Source: Escherichia phage tuntematon
DNA length: 64,000 nt
Sequence record: NC_052660.1
Strand: one strand, 5' to 3'
Within the stretch, counting starts at the first letter, position 1. Each line of letters begins with the position of its first letter. Shown here piece by piece: positions 33,857 to 47,180 of this stretch. The notes beneath the pieces are model-generated. The model did no database searches. It saw only the letters and a list, made by a program, of their open reading frames with translations, and was not told the origin of the DNA. Both the position numbers and the translations under genes were made by a program.

Positions 33857-33863
33857 AACTTAA

Positions 33864-33886
33864 AGGCGCACTTTGCGCCTTTTTTG
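33864..33886 (+). terminator. rho-independent terminator
   Basis: aggcgca-ctt-tgcgcct then TTTTTT. Confidence 0.8.
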
Positions 33887-36458: not shown

Positions 36459-37064
36459 ATGCAACATAGTGTAGTAGTCAACATGCCGAATAGTGGGGAT
36501 AAATCTTTTGGTGTTCCTGCTAAAAAAGTGTGGAAAGCCCATTTTCATCTTACTTTATCTAACGTTAGTTCTGAAGAGTTGATGAAAGCAGCTAAGATTA
36601 TTGGTGCCAAATGCACAACAATTGATTTACATCGGGATACAAAGTCTCAACGTGATCGTATGTTAACAAAGTATCAAAGCGATCTCGACACTACTTTAAT
36701 GTTGCAGTGTGTAGAAAAACTTGAGAATGCAGGTTTCAATGTTGTTCGTTACAAACTGGAACGAATGTTTAAACATGTTGCCTGTGTTCTTTTCATGGAT
36801 CTAAGTAAAGAAAATTACGGAGAAGTTCACATTAAGACTTCAGCAAGTGATCCCGAAGTAGAAACAAACTTCTTCCGTATTTCTTCTAATGCTGAAGAAA
36901 TTGATTACCGATTTTATAATGCTCGCTTATATTCCGCAGAAGATAAGTTGCGTTTCAATGAAGCGTATGATATGCTCTTGAACAGTGGGATACAGATAAA
37001 AGGCTACCACATAGAACAAGTGGTAGTGGACAGTAATCTTAACTTAGACGCATGGTGGGCTTAA
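36459..37064 (+). CDS. hypothetical protein
   Basis: ORF-track ORF; one HxTx motif (HFHLTL) but no confident family. Confidence 0.55.
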   Translation: MQHSVVVNMPNSGDKSFGVPAKKVWKAHFHLTLSNVSSEELMKAAKIIGAKCTTIDLHRDTKSQRDRMLTKYQSDLDTTLMLQCVEKLENAGFNVVRYKLERMFKHVACVLFMDLSKENYGEVHIKTSASDPEVETNFFRISSNAEEIDYRFYNARLYSAEDKLRFNEAYDMLLNSGIQIKGYHIEQVVVDSNLNLDAWWA

Positions 37065-37065
37065 T

Positions 37066-37722
37066 ATGACTATTAAACATATCTCTTTTGATGTATGGAA
37101 CACACTGATCACAGCAAACTCCAATTACGCAGACATGCGAGCCTGGACTATCGCAAAATATGGAGATATTACGGAAGTTGAAGCAAGAGCAGCTTATAAA
37201 AAAATCAAAAAGGAACTGGATAATGCAGCACTTCAAGGCAAAGCCGAGTGTGCAGCATACGCCTGGGAAAGACTCGGTTCTGAACTTGGGATAACGCCTT
37301 GGAAGTCTGCAAAGCTTCGTTTCGAGTGTGAACAGTGGTTCCTTAAGTTTCCACCACACGTAGCCGTAGATCTGCCGATGTACTTGCTGTATCTTTCTGG
37401 GCGTTATGATTTGAGTATTAAGAGCAATACCAACTTCATATCAGGGGATATTCTGCGTCGTGCTTGTAAGTTTGATAGTTGGAATTGTTTTGAGTTCACC
37501 CATTTCTCGGATGAAGCTTTACTTTGTAAACCAGATCCGCGATTCTTTGCTCGCACGCTCACGTATTCTCCGATCCCTCTGTTAGGGCACGAAGTATTGC
37601 ACGTAGGCGATAGTGAAGAATATGATGGAAAATGTGTTGACTTAGGATTTAACTTCTGTCATATTAAGAACCCTAACGACTTACTAGAGAAACTTAAAAG
37701 AGGAGAAATTGTAAATGCGTAA
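37066..37722 (+). CDS. HAD-superfamily hydrolase
   Basis: Motif I FDVWNTL (dehalogenase-like DxYxTL type) and motif IV VGDSEEYD. Confidence 0.55.
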   Translation: MTIKHISFDVWNTLITANSNYADMRAWTIAKYGDITEVEARAAYKKIKKELDNAALQGKAECAAYAWERLGSELGITPWKSAKLRFECEQWFLKFPPHVAVDLPMYLLYLSGRYDLSIKSNTNFISGDILRRACKFDSWNCFEFTHFSDEALLCKPDPRFFARTLTYSPIPLLGHEVLHVGDSEEYDGKCVDLGFNFCHIKNPNDLLEKLKRGEIVNA

Positions 37723-38542
37723 TCAAACTCAAATTTTTGCAAATAAATTTGATGACCTGGAAACTGCTACTTTTGATATCCAAGATTATTCAAAATTGAA
37801 ATTTGGTAGTAACCAAGCCGCGCGTCGTATGGGTAAAGAATTGGCACTTCAGTTTTTTGCTCAAGTGGCAATGAAACATATTGGGGAACAATTTGTTATC
37901 ATTCCTTCTCCTTACAACCATGTGCATAATGCTGCAACAATGATGACAGATCATTTTATTAATTACTTTAATATGTTGCAAGCACAATATGATCAAGGTC
38001 GTTCAGCAGAACTGGACATTATTCATCGTAAAGTTAGCTATATCAACGATTATGGTTTCTTGGATAAAGCTAGTCGTAAGAAACTTATTGATGGGGATAC
38101 ATTCTACTGTAACAAAGAATTCTGGGGGGATAAGAAGCTTGTATTCATTGATGATGTAAATATCACTGGAACGCATGAAGACAAACTGATTGAGATCCTT
38201 AATGAAAATCAAGTTAAAAATGATGTTTACTTCCTGTATTTTGCAAAATATGAAGGTAATCAAGCAGATACCGAAGCTAAACTGAATTTTAACTACATTA
38301 ATACACCGGAAGCGTTTGTTAAAATGATTAATGAAGAACGTGATGCACAGTGTCTTGTTCGTCCTATTAAGTATCTTATGGGCCAAAATCATGAAGACTT
38401 CAAAATCATTCTTAGCCAATTGCCACATTACTATGTAGAGCAACTTTTCTTTGGATGCTTGGGAGAAGGTTACAACCGAATTTCAAAGTATGCTGAAAAC
38501 TTTGAATTCTTGGATCGTTACACAAAACAACACATTCTGTAA
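37715..38542 (+). CDS. type I phosphoribosyltransferase-fold protein
   Basis: PRPP-binding loop KLVFIDDVNITGTHEDK. Confidence 0.65.
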   Translation: MRNQTQIFANKFDDLETATFDIQDYSKLKFGSNQAARRMGKELALQFFAQVAMKHIGEQFVIIPSPYNHVHNAATMMTDHFINYFNMLQAQYDQGRSAELDIIHRKVSYINDYGFLDKASRKKLIDGDTFYCNKEFWGDKKLVFIDDVNITGTHEDKLIEILNENQVKNDVYFLYFAKYEGNQADTEAKLNFNYINTPEAFVKMINEERDAQCLVRPIKYLMGQNHEDFKIILSQLPHYYVEQLFFGCLGEGYNRISKYAENFEFLDRYTKQHIL

Positions 38543-38555
38543 TAAGGAGCTAAAA

Positions 38556-39029
38556 ATGCTTAAAATGAAAACAGGTAATCTTATTGATGCCGCTAAAGCA
38601 GGTGAAGTAACTGTTATTGCTCATTGTTGCAACTGTATGTGTAATATGGGGGCAGGTATTGCCCCACAAATCAAACGAGCATTTCCTTACGCATATGCAG
38701 CAGACTTAGACACAATGGCTGGTGATCAAAGTAAACTAGGTTGTTTTAGTTTAGGGGTGCCAGACGAACAATCAGACCCTTTGGTATATAATCTATACGG
38801 GCAATACCGTTACGGATACAATGCTAAAGGTCGTCAGTTGGACTATGATGCACTTTACGATGCACTAATAGCTATGGCTAACGATTTGCTTCTCCGTGAC
38901 CAAAAATGTAAGATCGGCTTACCTATGATTGGCGCTGGACATGCTGGAGGTAATTGGGCTATCATCCAAGTGATGATTGAAGAAACTTTAGTAAAAACAG
39001 GTCACGATGTGACTATTTATAAACTTTAA
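38556..39029 (+). CDS. macrodomain protein (ADP-ribose binding/hydrolase)
   Basis: VTVIAHCCNCMCNMGAGIAPQIKRAFP and IGLPMIGAGHAGG match macrodomain signature blocks; start moved to ATG 38556 behind AAGGAG. Confidence 0.7.
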   Translation: MLKMKTGNLIDAAKAGEVTVIAHCCNCMCNMGAGIAPQIKRAFPYAYAADLDTMAGDQSKLGCFSLGVPDEQSDPLVYNLYGQYRYGYNAKGRQLDYDALYDALIAMANDLLLRDQKCKIGLPMIGAGHAGGNWAIIQVMIEETLVKTGHDVTIYKL

Positions 39030-39041
39030 GAGGAGATTAGT

Positions 39042-39263
39042 ATGGGTGTTTTTGCAGGTATTGTTGCAGTGGTAAGCTTTTTTGTTATTGCTTTTATGCT
39101 TAGTTTGATTCCAGCTTGGTTACTGTTGCTGGCTTACAACTATGTTGCTGAAGTTATGGGTCATGCAGATATCACTGTCCCAGTAACCTTCTGGACCGTG
39201 GTTTGTGTTTCGTTTATTCTGGCTGTATTACGAGGAATCTTTTCCTCTCATTCAACAAAATAA
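39042..39263 (+). CDS. small membrane protein
   Basis: Two hydrophobic helices. Confidence 0.5.
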   Translation: MGVFAGIVAVVSFFVIAFMLSLIPAWLLLLAYNYVAEVMGHADITVPVTFWTVVCVSFILAVLRGIFSSHSTK

Positions 39264-39342
39264 GTGTTGACATAGTTCTTAAAAAGAGTAAGATATATCA
39301 CATGAAGCGGGGAATAGTTCCCCGCAAAGAGAGGAGAAAAGA

Positions 39343-40317
39343 ATGCAACTTGGTTTCCCAATTATTGATGTAGTTGTTTTAGTTGGTATTTTAGCATTGT
39401 CTATTGGTATTGATTTCTTTGGTCACAAAGAAAATAAAGAAATTTCATTCAAATCCGCAGTTGGTTGGTCGATCTTTTGGATTGGTGTATCATTAGCTTA
39501 TTATGGTTTTGTATACTTCCAACATGGTGCCGATTTTGCTAACTTGTTTTTAAGTGGATATGTGTTGGAAAAATCTTTGTCGGTAGATAACTTGGTAGTA
39601 TTTGTAGCAGTATTCGCAAGTTTTGGTATTAAAAGCACACACTTGCAGCACAAGATTCTACTTTGGGGTATTGCAGGTGCGATTGTCTTCCGAGGTGTGT
39701 TTGTAGCAGTAGGCACTTACTTGTTAAGTTTGGGCTGGTATGTTAATATCTTCTTCGGTGCGGTCATCCTTTTCTGTGCAGCTAAAATGGTATTTGCTGG
39801 AGATAATGACGCAGAAGTTGATTACTCTAAACACTGGGCTACCCGTATTGTTCGTAAACTGTTCCCTGTATCTAATAAAATGGATGGGGAGAAGTTCTTC
39901 ACAATCGAAAATGGTGTTCGTGTAGCAACTCCAGCTTTGGTTTGCGTATTCGTGATGGAAATGGTGGATGTAATCTTTGCAGTAGATTCGGTTCCAGCGG
40001 TGATCGCAGTGACACAAGAACCCCTGCTTGTATTCTCTTCGATGTTATGTGCAATCTTAGGTCTACGTGCTCTGTTCTTTGTTCTTAGTGTCGCACTGAA
40101 GTATCTGGTTCACTTGGAGAAAGCAGTTATTGTGGTTCTGGTGTTTGTAGGCGTTAAACTGATGTATCACCCGTTTGCAGAAACATTGCATGAGAAAATC
40201 AGTTTCCTGCCAGCACATATTGATCCAACTGTTAGTATGTATATCGTGCTTGGTACTTTGGCCCTTGGTGTTATTGCAAGCTTTATCTTCCCTGAAAAAG
40301 AAGAAGCTACTGTTTAA
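39343..40317 (+). CDS. TerC-family integral membrane protein
   Basis: Polytopic membrane protein with LEKSLSVDNLVVFVAVF motif typical of TerC. Confidence 0.6.
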   Translation: MQLGFPIIDVVVLVGILALSIGIDFFGHKENKEISFKSAVGWSIFWIGVSLAYYGFVYFQHGADFANLFLSGYVLEKSLSVDNLVVFVAVFASFGIKSTHLQHKILLWGIAGAIVFRGVFVAVGTYLLSLGWYVNIFFGAVILFCAAKMVFAGDNDAEVDYSKHWATRIVRKLFPVSNKMDGEKFFTIENGVRVATPALVCVFVMEMVDVIFAVDSVPAVIAVTQEPLLVFSSMLCAILGLRALFFVLSVALKYLVHLEKAVIVVLVFVGVKLMYHPFAETLHEKISFLPAHIDPTVSMYIVLGTLALGVIASFIFPEKEEATV

Positions 40318-40323
40318 TAAATG

Positions 40324-40348
40324 AGCCTCCTTCGGGAGGCTATTTTAT
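40324..40348 (+). terminator. rho-independent terminator
   Basis: agcctcc-ttcg-ggaggct then ATTTTAT. Confidence 0.75.
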
Positions 40349-40359
40349 AGGAGAGACTT

Positions 40360-40710
40360 ATGAGTAATTTTGATGAAATTCAAGAACTTGTTTGGGATTT
40401 ATCTGGTGATGTGGATTACATTTCAGATTATCTTTCAAAAGTTTACCCTGGGGTAAGCGTTATGATTGTGACCAAAGATCCAATTAATTTGCCTCCTAAT
40501 GTTGTAGCTTGTTGTGGAAGTGGTTCAGGAGAAGTAGAGCCTGTATCTCGTTGGGAATTAACTAAAGCTGTTTCAAAACGAAACGGTGAAGTTTTGAATA
40601 TTGATATTGAGCAAATATGGACTTCTCCAGCAGCCAAATGGAATGATCCAAATGGTTGGGATTTGTTCTTCTGGGATAATGAGACTGATGATGAGGTGTT
40701 TTTAAAATGA
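40360..40710 (+). CDS. hypothetical protein
   Basis: ORF-track ORF; RBS AGGAGAG. Confidence 0.55.
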   Translation: MSNFDEIQELVWDLSGDVDYISDYLSKVYPGVSVMIVTKDPINLPPNVVACCGSGSGEVEPVSRWELTKAVSKRNGEVLNIDIEQIWTSPAAKWNDPNGWDLFFWDNETDDEVFLK

Positions 40711-40893
40711 AATACTTGTTGGTTGTGTTTGAAAATATCTGTTTTGCAATAGGGTTGTTTGTTGTAATTTTTGTATTGACAAGCGTAATCAACGGCAGTA
40801 AAGTGAGTTTATACCGAGATGGAGAGCAACTTTATTGCTTCTCTGGAGATTTCAAACACAGATGTATTAATAGCCAAAACGAGGAAAGCAAAT

Positions 40894-41331
40894 ATGAAAA
40901 AACTAGCCCTGATTTTAATTGGTTGTATCTTTTTAACAGCTTGCGAGGATGAAACAAATCCTGCACAATACCAACAACCTCCTCAACAATACGCTCAACA
41001 AGGATCTGACGGAGATACAACTATTATCAACAATGGTGGCGGTTCTAGTAGTAGCGGTGTTGGTGAGTTTGCTACAGGTATGTTGTTAGGGCATATGATG
41101 AGTGGCGGTAGTAATCGTAACAGTGGGGATTATAACGATAACAGAACGATTATTAATAAGCATTATAATACACCTAAACCGAAAACTAATTTTTATGGTA
41201 AGCCTAAACAAGAGATAAAAACTTATGAAAAGCCGAGACAAACTTTTAAAACAAATAGTAGCTATACAACTCGTAAATCTTACAATAGCCCTTTAAGTAA
41301 AAAGAGTTCATCTCGTAGCAAGCGACGTTAA
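40894..41331 (+). CDS. lipoprotein, low-complexity Q/P/S/G/N-rich
   Basis: Start moved to ATG 40894 (MKKLALILIGCIFLTAC lipobox) behind RBS GAGGAAAG. Confidence 0.5.
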   Translation: MKKLALILIGCIFLTACEDETNPAQYQQPPQQYAQQGSDGDTTIINNGGGSSSSGVGEFATGMLLGHMMSGGSNRNSGDYNDNRTIINKHYNTPKPKTNFYGKPKQEIKTYEKPRQTFKTNSSYTTRKSYNSPLSKKSSSRSKRR

Positions 41332-41345
41332 TAAGGAGAAAAACA

Positions 41346-41939
41346 ATGACAATTTCTATTCGTACTTCCATCGTAGGTGTTAAAAGGTTGCCTAATGCTT
41401 TGCAAATCACACGCGCTTTGAGGGATACATTCTCTGCTGTGGACGAGCATAAGATGCTTGATAATCTTTCAAATTGGCCCTATTTCCATTATTTTAAAAA
41501 TGAAGATGACGAGTTTATAGACGCTGTTTCTTATGGTTATGATTTCGGTAAGGAGGTTTCTGCTGAAGAATTTGTAGCTATGGTGTTCCCAAACGGTTTG
41601 CCTACTCGCAGTAAACGTAAAAAAGGACCAAAAAACAAGAAACGTGCTACTAATAAAGCTACCATTTTCTTTACTGATGGCACACAATATACGATTAAAG
41701 ATTTTGAAGAGGTATCTTATACAGCAGGTGGGAATCTTTCTTTCTACACCATCAAAAAACAAAACTCTACGTTCAGCCATGTTTCTAACATGATTGAAAT
41801 GTTAGTAGAAGATATTGAAAGCGTAGCTGTGTTAGGTATGCATAAAAGCTTTTTAATTACAAATATTTCAGATTTCAGTGCAAGTTTATCTGGCCCTGAT
41901 TTTGAAGCCACGACCACACATTTCGCTTTTAAGGTGTAA
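41346..41939 (+). CDS. hypothetical protein
   Basis: ORF-track ORF. Confidence 0.55.
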   Translation: MTISIRTSIVGVKRLPNALQITRALRDTFSAVDEHKMLDNLSNWPYFHYFKNEDDEFIDAVSYGYDFGKEVSAEEFVAMVFPNGLPTRSKRKKGPKNKKRATNKATIFFTDGTQYTIKDFEEVSYTAGGNLSFYTIKKQNSTFSHVSNMIEMLVEDIESVAVLGMHKSFLITNISDFSASLSGPDFEATTTHFAFKV

Positions 41940-41942
41940 GTT

Positions 41943-42533
41943 ATGCATACCGAGAGAGACTTGCAACTCTTGTGGTGGGAAGTGATGCAGGAAATAAAAG
42001 AAGATTTTCCTGTTTACTACAACATGTTACGTGAAGCAGGATATAAAGCTTGTGTTAGAAACAAAGTGAATAACTCTTTCGGTTGGTGCAACTACCGAGA
42101 TAAAATTGTTGTTGTAAATTGGCACTTGCATAAGAACTCCACAAGAGATATGATCGTGGATACAATGAAGCACGAAATTGCTCATGCTATTGATGGTTGT
42201 ATGGGTAAGTTTAGTAGGCACGGTGCTCATTGGCAAAAACTGGCAGCAGAATTAGGGGCTAATCCTAAAGCCACTTCCAAAGAGCCGTTGAACCACGAAT
42301 ATAAATATGTTCTTGTTCTGGTAGATAGGTTTGCGACAAGATGTGTTAGAGGTTATAATCGTAAACCTAATCGCATGTACCCAGGTAAGCAACCTAATAT
42401 GTGGTTGAAATCAGATAAAGAAGGGACCGAAGGAAAATTATGGTTGTATAAATGGGACGATTGGGTTAAAGTAGCTAAAGAGTACGGTGTTTCACCATAT
42501 ATAAGAGATGCAGAAGAGGAGAATGAAGAATGA
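41943..42533 (+). CDS. SprT-like zinc metallopeptidase
   Basis: HExxH motif MKHEIAHAIDG with downstream His; SprT-like length. Confidence 0.55.
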   Translation: MHTERDLQLLWWEVMQEIKEDFPVYYNMLREAGYKACVRNKVNNSFGWCNYRDKIVVVNWHLHKNSTRDMIVDTMKHEIAHAIDGCMGKFSRHGAHWQKLAAELGANPKATSKEPLNHEYKYVLVLVDRFATRCVRGYNRKPNRMYPGKQPNMWLKSDKEGTEGKLWLYKWDDWVKVAKEYGVSPYIRDAEEENEE

Positions 42534-43642
42534 CAAGTCCATTTTTAAAAGCAGCTACTGGTGGTCAGAAGAAGCCTGAAATGAGCGTATTTGCTGCAAC
42601 AACAGATGCAAGTAAATCTGTATTCGCTCCAAGCGTGTTAGATGCCAGTCCTGTTTATGCACCAGCGGCACCGCAAGAAGTTCCAGTTTTGCCTTCTATG
42701 ACCCGACAAGAGATCGAAGAGATTGGGGCAGAGGCAGGAACAACCTTGCGTTCCTTGAATGCCGAGGTATTAAAACATCAACGTAGTAATCAAGGCGATC
42801 AGATGAGTGAACGACTCACAGCTTTGATTAAACAGGCAAAACAACTTGATCCAAACTCTATTAAACAAAGCAAGGGTATTACTAAACTCATTAAAAAAGT
42901 TATGGGTATGAAAGAAGACCTGTTTGGGGAGTTTGATAATGTTAATAACCGTATTGAAGAGTTGGTAAAGAACCTTCAAATGGATATTCGCAAAGAAGAA
43001 GATTCCTTGGTATATCTTGAAAAGCTACATCAAGCTATTGGACAGTATGCTGCAAGTTTGAACCGAGATATGCAGCTTCTAACAGCAACCTATGAAAAAG
43101 AAGAACAAGCTTTGGCTGCTCTTCCAGAAGATGCAGTAGAACAGCGACAAGTGATCCGAGATACTTTGGATCTTCTGGAGATTCGTATTGCAGATTTAAA
43201 AGCATTGCGCCTACTGTGTGTCCAAATGGGACCGCGTGTACAAGGTATGCAAAAAGTTTCTGCAAGCTTAATGCGATCTGCGCGTAACATAGTAAATAAT
43301 GTTATTCCTGCTTACTCTGCTAACTTCTCAATGTATATCGAGAGCTTACGTCAAATGAAAGCAGCAGAGACGCAGAATAACGTTCTTGATGAATTTAACC
43401 TGGCAATTAAACTGGGTAGCGATCTTGCCACACAGAATCAGATCGAAGCAGCAGCACTGGCTAACCGTCAAGTGTTGGATATTGAAACTCTGCGTCACGA
43501 TCAGGAAAACTTGGTTAAGATGTTGGAAGAAACTAACCGCATCAATACGGAAGCCCGTGCTGCTCGTGTTGATTATATTAATGAAGTTCAATCTCTGGAA
43601 GACGGGATGGTAGCTGCTGTGAAACGAGGGCTTGGTAAATGA
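42530..43642 (+). CDS. TelA-like (toxic anion resistance family) coiled-coil protein
   Basis: 370-aa mostly helical protein of TelA-like size, sitting between TerC and TerD genes; family call is tentative. Confidence 0.45.
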   Translation: MTSPFLKAATGGQKKPEMSVFAATTDASKSVFAPSVLDASPVYAPAAPQEVPVLPSMTRQEIEEIGAEAGTTLRSLNAEVLKHQRSNQGDQMSERLTALIKQAKQLDPNSIKQSKGITKLIKKVMGMKEDLFGEFDNVNNRIEELVKNLQMDIRKEEDSLVYLEKLHQAIGQYAASLNRDMQLLTATYEKEEQALAALPEDAVEQRQVIRDTLDLLEIRIADLKALRLLCVQMGPRVQGMQKVSASLMRSARNIVNNVIPAYSANFSMYIESLRQMKAAETQNNVLDEFNLAIKLGSDLATQNQIEAAALANRQVLDIETLRHDQENLVKMLEETNRINTEARAARVDYINEVQSLEDGMVAAVKRGLGK

Positions 43643-43833
43643 GAATCCGTATCTATATAATTGATGAAGACATTGGTGTCCGTTATGATGACGAAAAACG
43701 ATTCGCACCGATGGGAGGTATATATCCCCCAAGTGTTCTAGCAGTTTGTCGTGATTGTTATATTTATGAAGGTTGTCGTAACTTCCGTAAATTCGAACTC
43801 CTTGCAGATATTGACTTCAATGAGGAGGAGTAA
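43639..43833 (+). CDS. hypothetical Cys-containing protein
   Basis: ORF-track ORF, ATGA overlap. Confidence 0.5.
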   Translation: MRIRIYIIDEDIGVRYDDEKRFAPMGGIYPPSVLAVCRDCYIYEGCRNFRKFELLADIDFNEEE

Positions 43834-44006
43834 TGAAAATATTACGAGTGAATATTGAAACTGCTTGGTGTGGATGCAATGAGGTTGTGGATATCGAAAT
43901 TGAAGATGATATGTCTCAAGAGGATATAGAAGATCTTGCACACGAAACCTTTCAGGATTATTGTAATTACGGGTTCCATATTTTAGAGGAGGAAGAAGAT
44001 GTATAA
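43833..44006 (+). CDS. candidate 57-aa acidic protein
   Basis: Hand-translated MKILRVNIETAWCGCNEVVDIEIEDDMSQEDIEDLAHETFQDYCNYGFHILEEEEDV; TAATG overlap; not in ORF track. Confidence 0.4.
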   Translation: MKILRVNIETAWCGCNEVVDIEIEDDMSQEDIEDLAHETFQDYCNYGFHILEEEEDV

Positions 44007-44397
44007 TCCAACAGGTATTCTTTTAAAACTTACAGTAACAGACCCTACTCTTTTCACCAAGTTAGCAAGTGGTGAAGTTTATGAAGTAATGAAAGATGAT
44101 GACGGTTGGTGTTATCTTTGTGGCTACTTCCTCTGTGATGCAGAAGAGTTAGAATCCATTGTAACTAAAGGTTTTTATGAAGAACCAGGGTTCCGTGTGG
44201 AAACTACGCAGAAACCTGATACCATTACGTTGACTCGACAGGAACTGATCACAATCATTGAAGATGCTTTTATTGATGGCTGGAATACACAAGATAATGA
44301 CTGGGGTGGACCCGAAGCTTTTCTGGAACATCATAAAGCTTATGGAGAATTTTGTGAAACCACTGTAGCTCTTGATAATCTGAAGGAGGGTTTGTAA
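43999..44397 (+). CDS. hypothetical protein
   Basis: ORF-track ORF. Confidence 0.55.
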   Translation: MYNPTGILLKLTVTDPTLFTKLASGEVYEVMKDDDGWCYLCGYFLCDAEELESIVTKGFYEEPGFRVETTQKPDTITLTRQELITIIEDAFIDGWNTQDNDWGGPEAFLEHHKAYGEFCETTVALDNLKEGL

Positions 44398-44960
44398 TGG
44401 GTTGTTTTAGTTTTTTGTGCAAAGAATCGGGCAAAGCTGCCCTTTCTACTTCTTTCGACGGATCGCCTTGCTACCTCTTTCTTTTGAAGGACGGTGTTGT
44501 TATTGAAGAGATGTATGGCAACTATGATAGTTATGGTTGTGTTTTCTCTGGAAAGGAGGATGAAAATGGTGTTCGTGAACGATTTGAATGGGCTATGGAT
44601 TGGAGTAAGGTTTGTGATTTGATGCATTCCTCAAATCCAAGGGACGGTATCGCTATGGTGCTGGAAGAGTACTTTACAGGTGAAATCCCTACAGAACAAT
44701 CTGACGGAGATCCTAACCAAGGTTGGGGTGATGGTGAAGAAGATCCAGATTGTTTTTTCAGCACAGAAAAGAATAAGTTTAAACGTGTTGACAACCCTTA
44801 TCACAAAGTGCATAATACTCTCATTGAAACAGAAGATGACAAGATGGAAATTGAAGAAGATGATCCTCTTGTAACACTTCCTATAAGTGAGTTACAAAAG
44901 ATCACTAAGGAAGCTTACGATTTGGGCTTCAAAATTGGTAGAGGAGGTATGCGTGTTTAG
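44397..44960 (+). CDS. hypothetical protein
   Basis: ORF-track ORF. Confidence 0.55.
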   Translation: MGCFSFLCKESGKAALSTSFDGSPCYLFLLKDGVVIEEMYGNYDSYGCVFSGKEDENGVRERFEWAMDWSKVCDLMHSSNPRDGIAMVLEEYFTGEIPTEQSDGDPNQGWGDGEEDPDCFFSTEKNKFKRVDNPYHKVHNTLIETEDDKMEIEEDDPLVTLPISELQKITKEAYDLGFKIGRGGMRV

Positions 44961-45231
44961 ATTCAATATTCAAGAAGAAAAAAGTCAGGATTTACCTATT
45001 GCTTTCGAAGATCTTGACGTAGGGGCCACATTCATGTATTATGATGCCTATGAAGACGCAGGGTTGGATACCTACCGTAACTTGGTGTTCATTAAAAATT
45101 CCACAAACAGTGCGATCTGTATTAATGGATCACTAGCACAACGAGGCTATACTCATTGCATCCCACCAGATACAAATATGGTGGAAGTAGATTTAGAAGT
45201 TACCAATATTACACTTAAGAAGGAGAAATAA
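44953..45231 (+). CDS. hypothetical protein (paralog of 46253..46522)
   Basis: Start moved to GTG 44953 behind GGAGGT; FRFNIQEEK...DLDVGATF aligns with LNFEIDEQK...DLDVGDTF. Confidence 0.45.
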   Translation: MFRFNIQEEKSQDLPIAFEDLDVGATFMYYDAYEDAGLDTYRNLVFIKNSTNSAICINGSLAQRGYTHCIPPDTNMVEVDLEVTNITLKKEK

Positions 45232-45232
45232 T

Positions 45233-46027
45233 ATGTCCGAGAAAATCAGCCTGAAAAAACGTCAAGAAAACCTTGCTTTCTCTCTGAAAAAGAATAAGAA
45301 CCTGAATGAAGGTAAGATTGTTCTTCGTGTAGCATGTGCTCTAGATATTTCTGGTAGTATGCATGGTCTATATTCTAGTGGGGTAGTGAGTGATTTTGTA
45401 GGTAAACTGCTTCCTTTTGGTATGCTGTTCGACGATAATCAACAAATTGATATGTGGGCCTTCAATACGAGTTCCCAAGAGCTTACTCCAGCAACAGCAG
45501 ATGTTTACGATGACTATGTTGGTAAATGTATGCGTAATGTTCGTATCGGAGGTGGAACAAATTACGCCCCTGTAATGGCAGATATCTACGATGAGTATTT
45601 TGGCACTGTTACCAAATATATTACCACTAAACAAGTGGTACAAGAGGAGGCTCCAAAGAAAGGCTTCTTTAATCGTCTGCTTGGTAAAACTGAAACAGTA
45701 TCTGTAGAGCGTGAAAAGGTTGTAGCTGTATCTGAACCAGGTGCTGACGTTACCCCTGGTGTTGTATTCTTCCAGACAGACGGTGAGAATGGTGATCCTA
45801 GTGCTGTTCGTCGTCTTATTGAAGAGAATAAGAATAAACCTATTTATTGGTTCATGGTTGGCGTTGGTAATGAGAAGTTTGGCTTCCTGAAAGAACTGGC
45901 AAATGCTTATGATAATGTTGGTTTTATTGGCATTAAAGATTTAGACTTGACAGATTCAGAGCTTTATGACAAACTCTTATCTGAAGAGTTCGGAGAGTGG
46001 GTTGTTAAAGTAGGTGCTAAAAAATGA
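45233..46027 (+). CDS. von Willebrand factor A domain protein (TerY-like)
   Basis: MIDAS motif DISGSM near N-terminus of a Rossmann-like region. Confidence 0.6.
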   Translation: MSEKISLKKRQENLAFSLKKNKNLNEGKIVLRVACALDISGSMHGLYSSGVVSDFVGKLLPFGMLFDDNQQIDMWAFNTSSQELTPATADVYDDYVGKCMRNVRIGGGTNYAPVMADIYDEYFGTVTKYITTKQVVQEEAPKKGFFNRLLGKTETVSVEREKVVAVSEPGADVTPGVVFFQTDGENGDPSAVRRLIEENKNKPIYWFMVGVGNEKFGFLKELANAYDNVGFIGIKDLDLTDSELYDKLLSEEFGEWVVKVGAKK

Positions 46028-46272
46028 TCGACGAGCTTGCCTCTCAAGTCATAGAAAATTATTGGCGCGAGAGAGAAGCTTTCATTATGCGCAGTCTCAA
46101 AGAGTATTTCATTGGGACTGTGCGAATGGAAGATATTGTAAGTAGAGTAGAGATTCATGTATGGCCCGATTATGAAGAATGGGTTGACAAAGAAAATGAA
46201 AATGCTATAATTCTTCGTATATACAAACCGGAGATAACATTAGGAGGAAGAAGTGTTAAACTTCGAAATTGA
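46024..46272 (+). CDS. hypothetical protein
   Basis: ORF-track ORF, ATGA overlap. Confidence 0.5.
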   Translation: MIDELASQVIENYWREREAFIMRSLKEYFIGTVRMEDIVSRVEIHVWPDYEEWVDKENENAIILRIYKPEITLGGRSVKLRN

Positions 46273-46522
46273 TGAGCAAAAAGTAAATAAACGATGCCTT
46301 ACCATTAAAGATTTGGATGTAGGAGATACTTTCGTCTATGAAAATGCATTTGACGAAAATGGTTTAGACCTTAGTGAAATCATTGTTTATTTAAAAGTAG
46401 ATGATGGGGAAAATGATTATTCTGCTGTAGAACTAAACCATCATGCACAATTAGTATCAATCCAAAACACATCTAAGCTTTTGGAAGTAGAATTGACTGT
46501 AACTGGTATTACACTTAAATAA
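46253..46522 (+). CDS. hypothetical protein (paralog of 44953..45231)
   Basis: GTG start; shared DLDVG.TF and LEV.LTVT.ITLK blocks. Confidence 0.5.
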   Translation: MLNFEIDEQKVNKRCLTIKDLDVGDTFVYENAFDENGLDLSEIIVYLKVDDGENDYSAVELNHHAQLVSIQNTSKLLEVELTVTGITLK

Positions 46523-46537
46523 TAGAGGAGACAAAAG

Positions 46538-47140
46538 ATGACTGATAAAATTTCCCTGAAAAAAGGCTCTAGCGAAAAAATTTCCCTGAAGAAGGTTGCT
46601 CCGGCTCTGAAAGAACTGCGCCTGGAATTCTCTTGGAAGTCTGATTCTAAACTGGATCTGGATGTAAGTGCACTGGTTTGTCGTCACAATGCCGCTGGCA
46701 ATCCTGAAATGCTGTCTGCACGTCATCTTGTTTGCTATGCTAACAAGTTTGATCCTGAACGTTCTACCTTCGCTGGTGACGATGTTCGTGATGGCACTGG
46801 CAGCATGGAGCAGATTGATATTACTCTGGCTAAAATCTCTCCTGATGCACAAGAGATTGCCTTTGTTCTGACCATTGATGATGATACAGGTCTGAAACGT
46901 TTTGGTCATGCTTCTGAAGGTATGCTTAAAATCTTCGACTCCGAGCGCAATGTGGAAATTCTGGATTTTGACTTCCTGGCTCCTGAAGTAGCTGGTAACA
47001 CAATCTGCCACGTGGCTTCCTTGGTTCGTGAAGATGGAGAATGGAAGCTGAAAGCATATGGTGTAGGTAAAGCTGGTCTGGATATTTGTGATGTGGTGAT
47101 GGCCTTCGGTGGTAAAAAAGAATGGTATGAATGTCCGTAA
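46538..47140 (+). CDS. TerD-domain protein
   Basis: 200 aa; LDLDVSALV and GDDVRDGTGSMEQIDITL match the TerD signature (GDNxTGEGDGDDEQI). Confidence 0.7.
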   Translation: MTDKISLKKGSSEKISLKKVAPALKELRLEFSWKSDSKLDLDVSALVCRHNAAGNPEMLSARHLVCYANKFDPERSTFAGDDVRDGTGSMEQIDITLAKISPDAQEIAFVLTIDDDTGLKRFGHASEGMLKIFDSERNVEILDFDFLAPEVAGNTICHVASLVREDGEWKLKAYGVGKAGLDICDVVMAFGGKKEWYECP

Positions 47141-47158
47141 TAATTAACAAATGATTTT

Positions 47159-47180
47159 GAGGGGGAGAAATCCCCCTCTT
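47159..47180 (+). terminator. terminator-like hairpin
   Basis: gaggggga-gaaa-tccccctc then TT. Confidence 0.5.

Follow-up and report, generated by a model that had tools for sequence, protein, structure and literature searches.

The link between Ter systems and resistance to phages, colicins and tellurite goes back to the 1990s. Here we analyse a Ter gene cluster in the genome of Escherichia phage tuntematon (NC_052660.1), located at 36459-47140 of a 64,000-nucleotide window, the whole stretch of DNA under study, to which all positions refer. Iyer et al. (2021, PMC7824862) described phage Ter systems with a signal-synthesis arm of phosphoribosyltransferase (PRTase) and HAD enzymes, reading them as superinfection-exclusion devices, and Ter clusters are on record for Acinetobacter jumbo phage vB_AbaM_ME3, which carries PRTase and HAD enzymes, and Caulobacter jumbo phages (both PMC7824862), as well as for Klebsiella phage phiKp34 (PMC8386662) and Pseudomonas phage phiPsa374 (PMC9796965). 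According to the account given in PMC7824862, bacterial Ter systems with PRTase/HAD biosynthetic neighbours were set out by Anantharaman, Iyer and Aravind in 2012; the phenotypes of plasmid Ter systems, resistance to phages and to pore-forming colicins, are taken here as cited in PMC8386662 and PMC9796965. The 2026 literature still calls the mechanism and function of Ter proteins in bacteria unresolved.

For the phAPEC8/phi92 group of phages, the open-access literature searched mentions a ‘tellurite resistance’ gene only in passing and contains no paper combining phAPEC8 with TerD, and a literature search for a Phapecoctavirus transcriptome found none. A first-pass annotation of the window, made from the sequence, had not recognised the arrangement as a characterised one. 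This stands with regard to experiments, but similar clusters were described in 2021 (PMC7824862), and GenBank OM362897 already names every domain of the present one.

The conserved core of the tuntematon cluster consists of six genes, encoding an HAD hydrolase, a PRTase_3 protein, TerC, TelA, a TerF-like protein with a von Willebrand factor A (vWA) domain, and TerD:

37066..37722, + strand: HAD-superfamily hydrolase (PF00702, E = 4e-4, under the gathering score)
37715..38542, + strand: PRTase_3, a ComF-like type I phosphoribosyltransferase (PF15610, E = 4.5e-42, full length)
39343..40317, + strand: TerC/Alx-type integral membrane metal-homeostasis protein (PF03741, 1e-38)
42530..43642, + strand: TelA-family protein (PF05816, 3.2e-33, profile positions 13-327 of 332)
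45233..46027, + strand: vWA-TerF-like protein (PF10138, 1.6e-37)
46538..47140, + strand: TerD-domain protein (PF02342, 3.2e-28, profile positions 3-177 of 187)

On balance, and with some reserve, we favour the reading that these genes form a streamlined phage-borne Ter system that protects envelope and ion balance and excludes rivals. The domain identities proposed in the first-pass annotation were all reproduced, at the coordinates given there and on the + strand, by Pfam, NCBIfam and PDB profiles, including the TerD, TerC and TelA assignments that it had put forward for checking; the HAD hydrolase, sub-threshold in Pfam, matched structure 2om6 at 1.3e-13 with a five-sequence profile. The phosphoribosyl pyrophosphate (PRPP)-binding, HAD-nucleophile, metal ion-dependent adhesion site (MIDAS) and TerC signature motifs are all intact. 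The type I PRTase loop is present as VFIDDVNITGT, with D146, D147, T151 and G152 invariant; the vWA protein shows the MIDAS motif DISGS...T...D in its translation; TerC keeps the segments EKSLSVDN and FAVDSVPA; and TelA is 79% identical to phi92 gp178.

The distribution of these genes argues that they belong together. The 10.7-kb stretch belongs to a Phapecoctavirus (phAPEC8-like) genome and shares 99% identity with Escherichia phage SKA64. It is matched by 133 phage records (62 of them covering at least 80%), nearly all from Phapecoctavirus or Justusliebigvirus, subfamily Stephanstirmvirinae; the genes are syntenic in these relatives and not scattered, which the first-pass annotation had named as a refutation. 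Among the 50,697 records of the phage database searched, PRTase_3 occurs in 155, this type of TerD in 147 and TerC in 175, and the three organism lists are almost identical, the exception being 11 Rhizobium phages with only HAD and PRTase_3. We compared the cluster gene by gene with phi92, KP13-16, phAPEC8, EF1-1, eleven IMG/VR loci and one Logan contig (L numbers denote loci of our collection), and obtained bacterial gene context by plasmid tblastn. Ter genes adjoin the HAD-PRTase_3 pair in five phage arrangements and on one bacterial plasmid. Besides the phAPEC8/phi92 order, these are TerC-vWA-TerD-TerD-TelA-HAD-PRTase in KP13-16 and L019 (contiguous in L019); TerC-TelA-TerD-x-vWA-HAD-YopX-PRTase in L020, an unrelated 211-kb contig; HAD-PRTase convergent with TerC and TerD in L009, an unrelated 123-kb contig; and ATP-grasp and TerB directly upstream of HAD-PRTase in L018, a 195-kb contig. 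On the Hymenobacter monticola plasmid NZ_CP094537, HAD-PRTase_3 is divergent from three TerD genes, two VWA genes, PP2C, a kinase and DUF475, which bears out the likeness to bacterial Ter neighbourhoods claimed in the first-pass annotation and follows the logic set out by Iyer et al. (2021). In the rearranged lineages PRTase_3 is only 34-50% identical to that of the window. Because the organism lists are nearly identical and the association recurs in rearranged orders in independent lineages, we regard the clustering as above chance.

HAD is the obligate partner of PRTase_3, and its gene immediately precedes that of PRTase_3 in all but one of the 19 loci examined (in the exception, L020, a YopX-like open reading frame (ORF) stands between them). 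HAD motifs I-IV are conserved, with D9, S120, K155, D182 and D187 invariant, so that the nucleophilic Asp, the Ser of motif II, the Lys of motif III and the GDxxxxD of motif IV are kept. Motif I, FDVWNTL, departs from the DxDx(T/V) of canonical HAD phosphatases by a Trp (W11) at Asp+2, which is invariant in five phage sequences and present in all eight sequences checked (five phages, two bacterial plasmids and PDB 2om6). In canonical HAD phosphatases the Asp+2 residue is the general acid/base. The usual label ‘nucleotide phosphatase’ is therefore not safe for this protein. The loci with this Trp are 37066-37722 of the window, L003, L004, L005, L006, L012 and L025, and 2om6 is an uncharacterised archaeal structure.

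The pair shares the two-step logic of PRPP transfer followed by an HAD reaction with the glycan phosphoribosyltransferase and HAD phosphoribose phosphatase (gPRT/PRP) of ribofuranosyl transferases (PMC11127046), but the phage proteins are separate, and a relationship is not borne out by either profile: that of PRTase_3 found no significant solved PRTase in the PDB (best E 0.13) and did not have the ribofuranosyl transferase 7shg among its matches, and that of HAD matched the HAD part of 7shg weakly (E 0.0025). HAD-PRTase_3 also occurs with no Ter genes close by: in L021, in Rhizobium phage TM30, on Rhizobium plasmid pRL10 (beside repA) and on a Sinorhizobium plasmid (with a glycosyltransferase and an epimerase/dehydratase within 7 kb). 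Ter proteins are thus not needed for the pair to work. Its distance from TerD is 28-40 kb in jumbo phages of Caulobacter and Brevundimonas, whereas all six genes of the tuntematon cluster fall within 10 kb. In three other lineages the pair adjoins genes of the nicotinamide adenine dinucleotide (NAD)-salvage type (L020, 10835-15217; L021, 5863-8628; L004, 2868-6867), the neighbours being a cytidylyltransferase-like gene and NAMPT in L020 and NUDIX in L021 and TM30; the NUDIX-type neighbourhoods also include a metallophosphatase. A link to NAD salvage in the tuntematon phage was rejected, the window containing no NAMPT or NMNAT homologue.

TerC, with a promoter and a terminator of its own, forms a self-contained unit, one of at least three transcription units into which the stretch is divided. 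The first-pass annotation had described a co-directional 10-kb stretch bounded by terminators at 33864, 40324 and 47159: all of its genes do lie on the + strand, but they do not form one operon, and a terminator scan called 33862-33882 and 40324-40341 but not the hairpin at 47159. The signals concerned, with two small paralogous ORFs that follow promoter-like sites, are:

39267..39294, + strand: sigma-70-like promoter of TerC (TTGACA-16-TAAGAT)
40324..40341, + strand: intrinsic terminator ending the TerC unit (7-pair stem with 5 GC pairs, then ATTTTAT)
44788-44816, + strand: promoter-like site before paralogue a and vWA (sigma-70-like, 11/12)
44953..45231, + strand: phrog_11278 paralogue a, directly upstream of vWA
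46184..46211, + strand: promoter before paralogue b and TerD (TTGACA-16-TG-TATAAT, 12/12, with an extended -10 element)
46253..46522, + strand: phrog_11278 paralogue b, directly upstream of TerD
47159..47178, + strand: GC-rich hairpin closing the block (no T-run; not called by the terminator scan)

These promoter sites were picked by match quality and position only, and promoter-like matches are not enriched over the whole region (51 found vs. 45.6 expected in shuffled sequence). The TerC site is an annotated host-dependent promoter in phAPEC8 (JX561091). The two phrog_11278 paralogues are 34% identical (E 2e-14), and each stands directly 5' of a Ter gene, behind a strong sigma-70-like promoter match.

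The TerC of the window is 95% identical to that of phi92 and 73% identical to those of phAPEC8, EF1-1 and most other Phapecoctavirus, whereas its flanking genes show the opposite pattern, with 97-100% identity to phAPEC8 and 36-81% to phi92. This pattern indicates that the TerC cassette (39267-40341) has been exchanged between genera by recombination. Like the TerC/Alx metal exporters and metalation factors (E. coli Alx, B. subtilis MeeF/MeeY, Vibrio TerC), the phage protein scores above the subfamily cut-off (NCBIfam TIGR03718, 2.9e-95, 319 bits vs. a cut-off of 246) and keeps the family signatures, but its gene has a short sigma-70-type promoter in place of a Mn riboswitch leader and stands among Ter partners. 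The possibility that a Mn riboswitch or another RNA element precedes TerC was rejected, as an Rfam scan of the whole window found no riboswitch and no other RNA family. TerC also occurs alone, in other phages of 73-92 kb that infect Proteus, Cronobacter, Vibrio and Pectobacterium.

The paper on the Klebsiella TerD structure reportedly gives the canonical Ca2+-binding signature as GDN(R/L)TG(E/A)GDGDDE. The phage protein matches that structure (2KXT) at 1.5e-15, but its signature is degenerate: GDNRTGEGDGDDE, aligned to GDD-VRDGTGSME, is identical at 5 of 13 positions, with three acidic positions lost. None of the 20 ORFs scanned in the region matched TerB, for which the related contig L018 gave the sole example; not every Ter system has a TerB.

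Set against bacterial and plasmid Ter systems (terZABCDEF of IncHI2 plasmid R478, telA/klaA), the cluster has the same TerD, TerC, TelA and vWA (TerF/TerY-type) families, the vWA protein with its MIDAS, together with linked PRTase_3 and HAD genes. It differs in having one TerD and not several paralogues, in the degenerate Ca2+ signature of that TerD, in lacking TerB, ATP-grasp, TIM-barrel enzymes and the PP2C/kinase pair, in being split into several transcription units with phage-only ORFs between them, and in its carrier, a virulent phage. With the clusters reported from ME3, the Caulobacter phages, phiKp34 and phiPsa374 it has in common virulent carriers and the TerC, TerD, TerF-vWA and TelA families, the role proposed there being competition with superinfecting phages, whereas its own carriers are non-jumbo E. 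coli phages of ~150 kb (Phapecoctavirus, Justusliebigvirus). Similar phage Ter clusters with PRTase and HAD have already been described; what is new is the Trp at Asp+2 of HAD, the swapped TerC cassette, the degenerate TerD signature and the adjacency of an endolysin gene.

Interspersed with the core, and on either side of it, lie further genes:

36459..37064, + strand: 201-amino-acid ORF, not in the conserved module
38556..39029, + strand: macrodomain protein of the T4 Tk.4 family, SCO6735/BT1257-like (Pfam Macro 1.3e-4, at the gathering score)
39042..39263, + strand: small hydrophobic membrane protein of 73 amino acids, seen in translation (phrog_16065)
40360..41939, + strand: four ORFs with phage-only PHROG matches (116 amino acids; 81 amino acids with an N-terminal transmembrane segment; a lipoprotein; 197 amino acids)
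41943..42533, + strand: SprT-like zinc metallopeptidase (PF10263, 4.2e-9)
43639..44397, + strand: three small ORFs (64 amino acids; 57 amino acids, with a weak DUF7167 match; 132 amino acids) that vary between genera
44397..44960, + strand: 187-amino-acid protein whose N-terminal ~135 amino acids are a widespread, strongly conserved phage domain
47240..47761, + strand: SleB-type endolysin (phrog_938, 1e-18) with an N-terminal signal-like hydrophobic segment

The macrodomain protein, the SprT-like protease and the 201- and 187-amino-acid ORFs are separate passengers in the same accessory region. The first-pass annotation had counted the macrodomain and the protease as parts of the module and had set its start at 36459, a coordinate that belongs to the 201-amino-acid ORF, which it did not name and which lies outside the module. 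The macrodomain as a module-specific addition was rejected on distribution: its Tk.4 family occurs in 2,913 phage records, independently of Ter genes, and outside the phAPEC8/phi92 arrangement the gene is absent from the cluster (KP13-16, L019, L020, L009, L018). Its ORF opens at 38451, the start annotated in relatives being 38556. The protein shares fold and ADP-ribose-binding glycine-rich segments with T4 Tk.4, SCO6735, TARG1 and DarG (PDB matches 5e3b (SCO6735) 1.9e-12, DarG 1.2e-6, TARG1 5e-6; PADLOC DarG model 2.7e-10; NCBIfam DarG 36 bits vs. a cut-off of 250), the closest solved relatives being SCO6735 and BT1257. The catalytic Lys of TARG1 and DarG, in a T-K-K segment, is replaced here by G-Q-Y, as in SCO6735 and BT1257, so that the match to TARG1/DarG-type hydrolases holds at the level of the fold but not of the catalytic lysine. 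The SprT-like protein has its HExxH motif (HEIAH) but is absent from phi92-type and KP13-16-type clusters and present in L015 and L016; it is a lineage-specific insert.

The 201-amino-acid ORF, which phi92 and KP13-16 lack, is matched over nearly its full length by two AbiEi-labelled PADLOC models (5e-13) but has no Pfam AbiEi match and no AbiEii-like neighbour; its invariant motifs are HFHLT, EVHIKT, QRDRMLTKY and RFYNAR, its predicted fold is a tandem ferredoxin-like one, and a fold search was uninformative. A phage-borne version of an antitoxin from a defence system is a possible reading. The 187-amino-acid ORF, with the domain motifs MGCFSFLC...DPNQGWG...PYHKV, was rejected as a Ter component, since members of its family are common in phages that have no Ter genes. 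The 73-amino-acid membrane protein is kept in phi92 (60% identity), and the four ORFs at 40360..41939 are partly kept in phi92 and KP13-16; the three of them that were scanned (the 116-amino-acid ORF, the lipoprotein and the 197-amino-acid ORF) had no Pfam match. The lipoprotein named in the first-pass annotation is visible in translation, with its Met at 40894 and the lipobox LTAC.

The Ter cluster lies inside a block of + strand genes that extends from ~24 kb to ~60 kb of the window, with anaerobic ribonucleotide reductase genes upstream and the SleB-type endolysin, then four glycosyltransferase genes, downstream; minus-strand ORFs of the region are nested in + strand genes and without support, and no tRNAs were found in the window. 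The endolysin gene adjoins or sits inside the cluster in all Stephanstirmvirinae arrangements (phi92, KP13-16, L019), and its N-terminus, judged by eye from the translation, resembles a signal peptide (MLIKNFVTVALLSLTAFTFTPVVAKA/EA). A lysis cassette beside the cluster was rejected: none of the three translated ORFs that follow the endolysin shows a membrane-spanning segment, and there is therefore no adjacent holin.

Recent capture from a host, or a prophage or plasmid copy, was likewise rejected, as 37066-47140 had no megablast match in any of 5,426 complete E. coli genomes. A peptide-pattern scan of 100,044 species genomes for bacterial relatives, with patterns that were too strict, returned only a phage fragment binned in a metagenome-assembled genome (MAG). 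This 13-kb contig in a ‘Proteobacteria bacterium’ MAG (L024, JAEZZU010000022.1) encodes a PRTase_3 99% identical to that of the window and is probably a mis-binned Phapecoctavirus fragment. Six phage records with Campylobacter, Acinetobacter or Pseudomonas labels (MG065650, MG065639, MG065656, MG065689, OP562383, OR584014) are near-identical to E. coli Phapecoctavirus or Justusliebigvirus; probably these host labels are wrong or the samples were contaminated.

If the cluster is indeed a streamlined Ter system, host RNA polymerase would transcribe its genes soon after infection. PRTase_3 would couple PRPP to an acceptor, and HAD would then process the resulting phosphoribosyl compound to give a small molecule resembling a riboside; TerD and vWA, as binders of ligands and cations, would cooperate with the cation transporter TerC in the inner membrane and with TelA beneath it, and the four proteins would jointly alter the envelope state and divalent-cation handling of the infected cell. 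The benefit would be a membrane that stays intact and energised through the latent period, with superinfecting phages and pore-forming colicins shut out, in line with what is reported of plasmid Ter systems and with the proposal of Iyer et al. (2021). Protection of the phage-infected cell and exclusion of rivals would, on our analysis, be the likeliest role. Several observations weigh against this account. The genes are split among at least three transcription units with unrelated genes in between; TerB, part of the classical operon, is missing from the region; the Ca2+ signature of TerD is degenerate; HAD has no general acid at Asp+2, where a nucleotide phosphatase would be expected to have one; and HAD-PRTase_3 exists without Ter neighbours in L021, in Rhizobium phages and on plasmids of Rhizobium and Sinorhizobium. 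The literature searched contains no experiment on a phage Ter cluster, and a benefit from excluding other phages is assumed. A more elaborate version, which we think quite unlikely, has a hitherto undescribed riboside signal from HAD-PRTase_3, read by TerD and vWA, controlling TerC cation flux and TelA membrane support, thereby serving as both timer and shield: the inner membrane would stay energised, the Sec-exported endolysin would not be released early, and rival phages and colicins would be blocked.

TerC proteins have been reported in Mn export and in the metalation of exported enzymes (PMC10550928, PMC13274385), and the cluster might accordingly be a metal-homeostasis device, in which TerC/Alx exports Mn2+ or other divalent cations or metalates Sec-exported proteins, e.g., the endolysin, with TerD, vWA and TelA as cation-binding accessories, and which serves phage metabolism or lysis, not exclusion. 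The score of TerC above the TerC/Alx cut-off, its own promoter and terminator, its exchange as a cassette and its solitary occurrence in smaller phages fit this idea, as do the intact MIDAS of vWA and a signal-like endolysin adjoining the cluster in four arrangements. We nevertheless consider it unlikely, since it leaves the recurrent linkage to HAD-PRTase_3 and TelA unexplained, no Mn riboswitch or other Rfam element precedes TerC, the TerD Ca2+ signature is degenerate and SleB-type lysins are not known to be metalloenzymes. The independent replacement of TerC, together with the several transcription units and internal terminator, the interleaved passengers (187-amino-acid domain, SprT, macrodomain, 201-amino-acid ORF) and the ability of HAD-PRTase_3 to stand alone, could be expected of a hypervariable accessory region in which independent genes pile up, with no functional unit and a Ter-like look due to common ancestry in one phage subfamily. 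That this is all there is seems improbable, as the six families cluster again in other orders, with a PRTase_3 as little as 34-50% identical, and on a Bacteroidota plasmid, and co-occur almost completely at the level of genomes.

Two further proposals centre on the HAD-PRTase_3 pair. The first-pass annotation had suggested counter-defence, in which the pair would make or restore a nucleotide-like metabolite in the face of nucleotide- or NAD-depleting immunity while the macrodomain reverses ADP-ribosylation. The resemblance of the macrodomain to the de-ADP-ribosylating enzymes noted above (SCO6735, DarG, TARG1 and the PADLOC DarG model) and the NAD-salvage-type genes beside the pair in three other lineages speak for this, but the macrodomain is generic among phages, is absent from the cluster in most lineages and lacks the catalytic Lys of DarG and TARG1; no core protein matches PADLOC; the best solved PRTase for PRTase_3 stands at E 0.13; the window has no NAMPT or NMNAT homologue; and TerC, TelA, TerD and vWA are given no role. 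The suggestion gains no specific support, and we hold it to be very unlikely. Least probable of all, in our judgement, is that HAD-PRTase_3, instead of making a free nucleoside, ribosylates a macromolecule or a lipid, for instance an envelope glycan, in two steps, possibly with the glycosyltransferases ~1.3 kb downstream. Biochemical work has established PRPP transfer with subsequent HAD dephosphorylation for the attachment of ribofuranose to polysaccharides (PMC11127046), and the weak match of the HAD profile to 7shg, the four glycosyltransferase genes after the endolysin and the glycosyltransferase and epimerase/dehydratase on the Sinorhizobium plasmid point the same way; against it, the PRTase_3 profile finds neither 7shg nor any significant solved PRTase, the pair has no glycan genes around it in the L019 and L020 Ter clusters or next to repA on pRL10, and the two proteins are separate, not fused.

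The streamlined Ter system that we favour has a bearing beyond this one phage. The cluster is conserved in more than 100 sequenced E. coli phages growing on K-12, including PaulScherrer and EmilieFrey (BASEL accession series), which we take to be phages of the BASEL collection, and its compact six-gene core offers a genetically tractable version of a long-unexplained system. Given the small core, the K-12 hosts and the natural variants, which lack the macrodomain or SprT or are reordered, it is practical for deletion genetics, metabolomics and superinfection-exclusion tests. With a view to phage therapy, it would be wrong to take the cluster for a heavy-metal resistance gene likely to spread, because nothing similar is found in the 5,426 complete E. 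coli genomes. Should the riboside-signal timer and shield prove true, the six-gene phage version would be the smallest functional Ter system and would at last make clear what such systems do.

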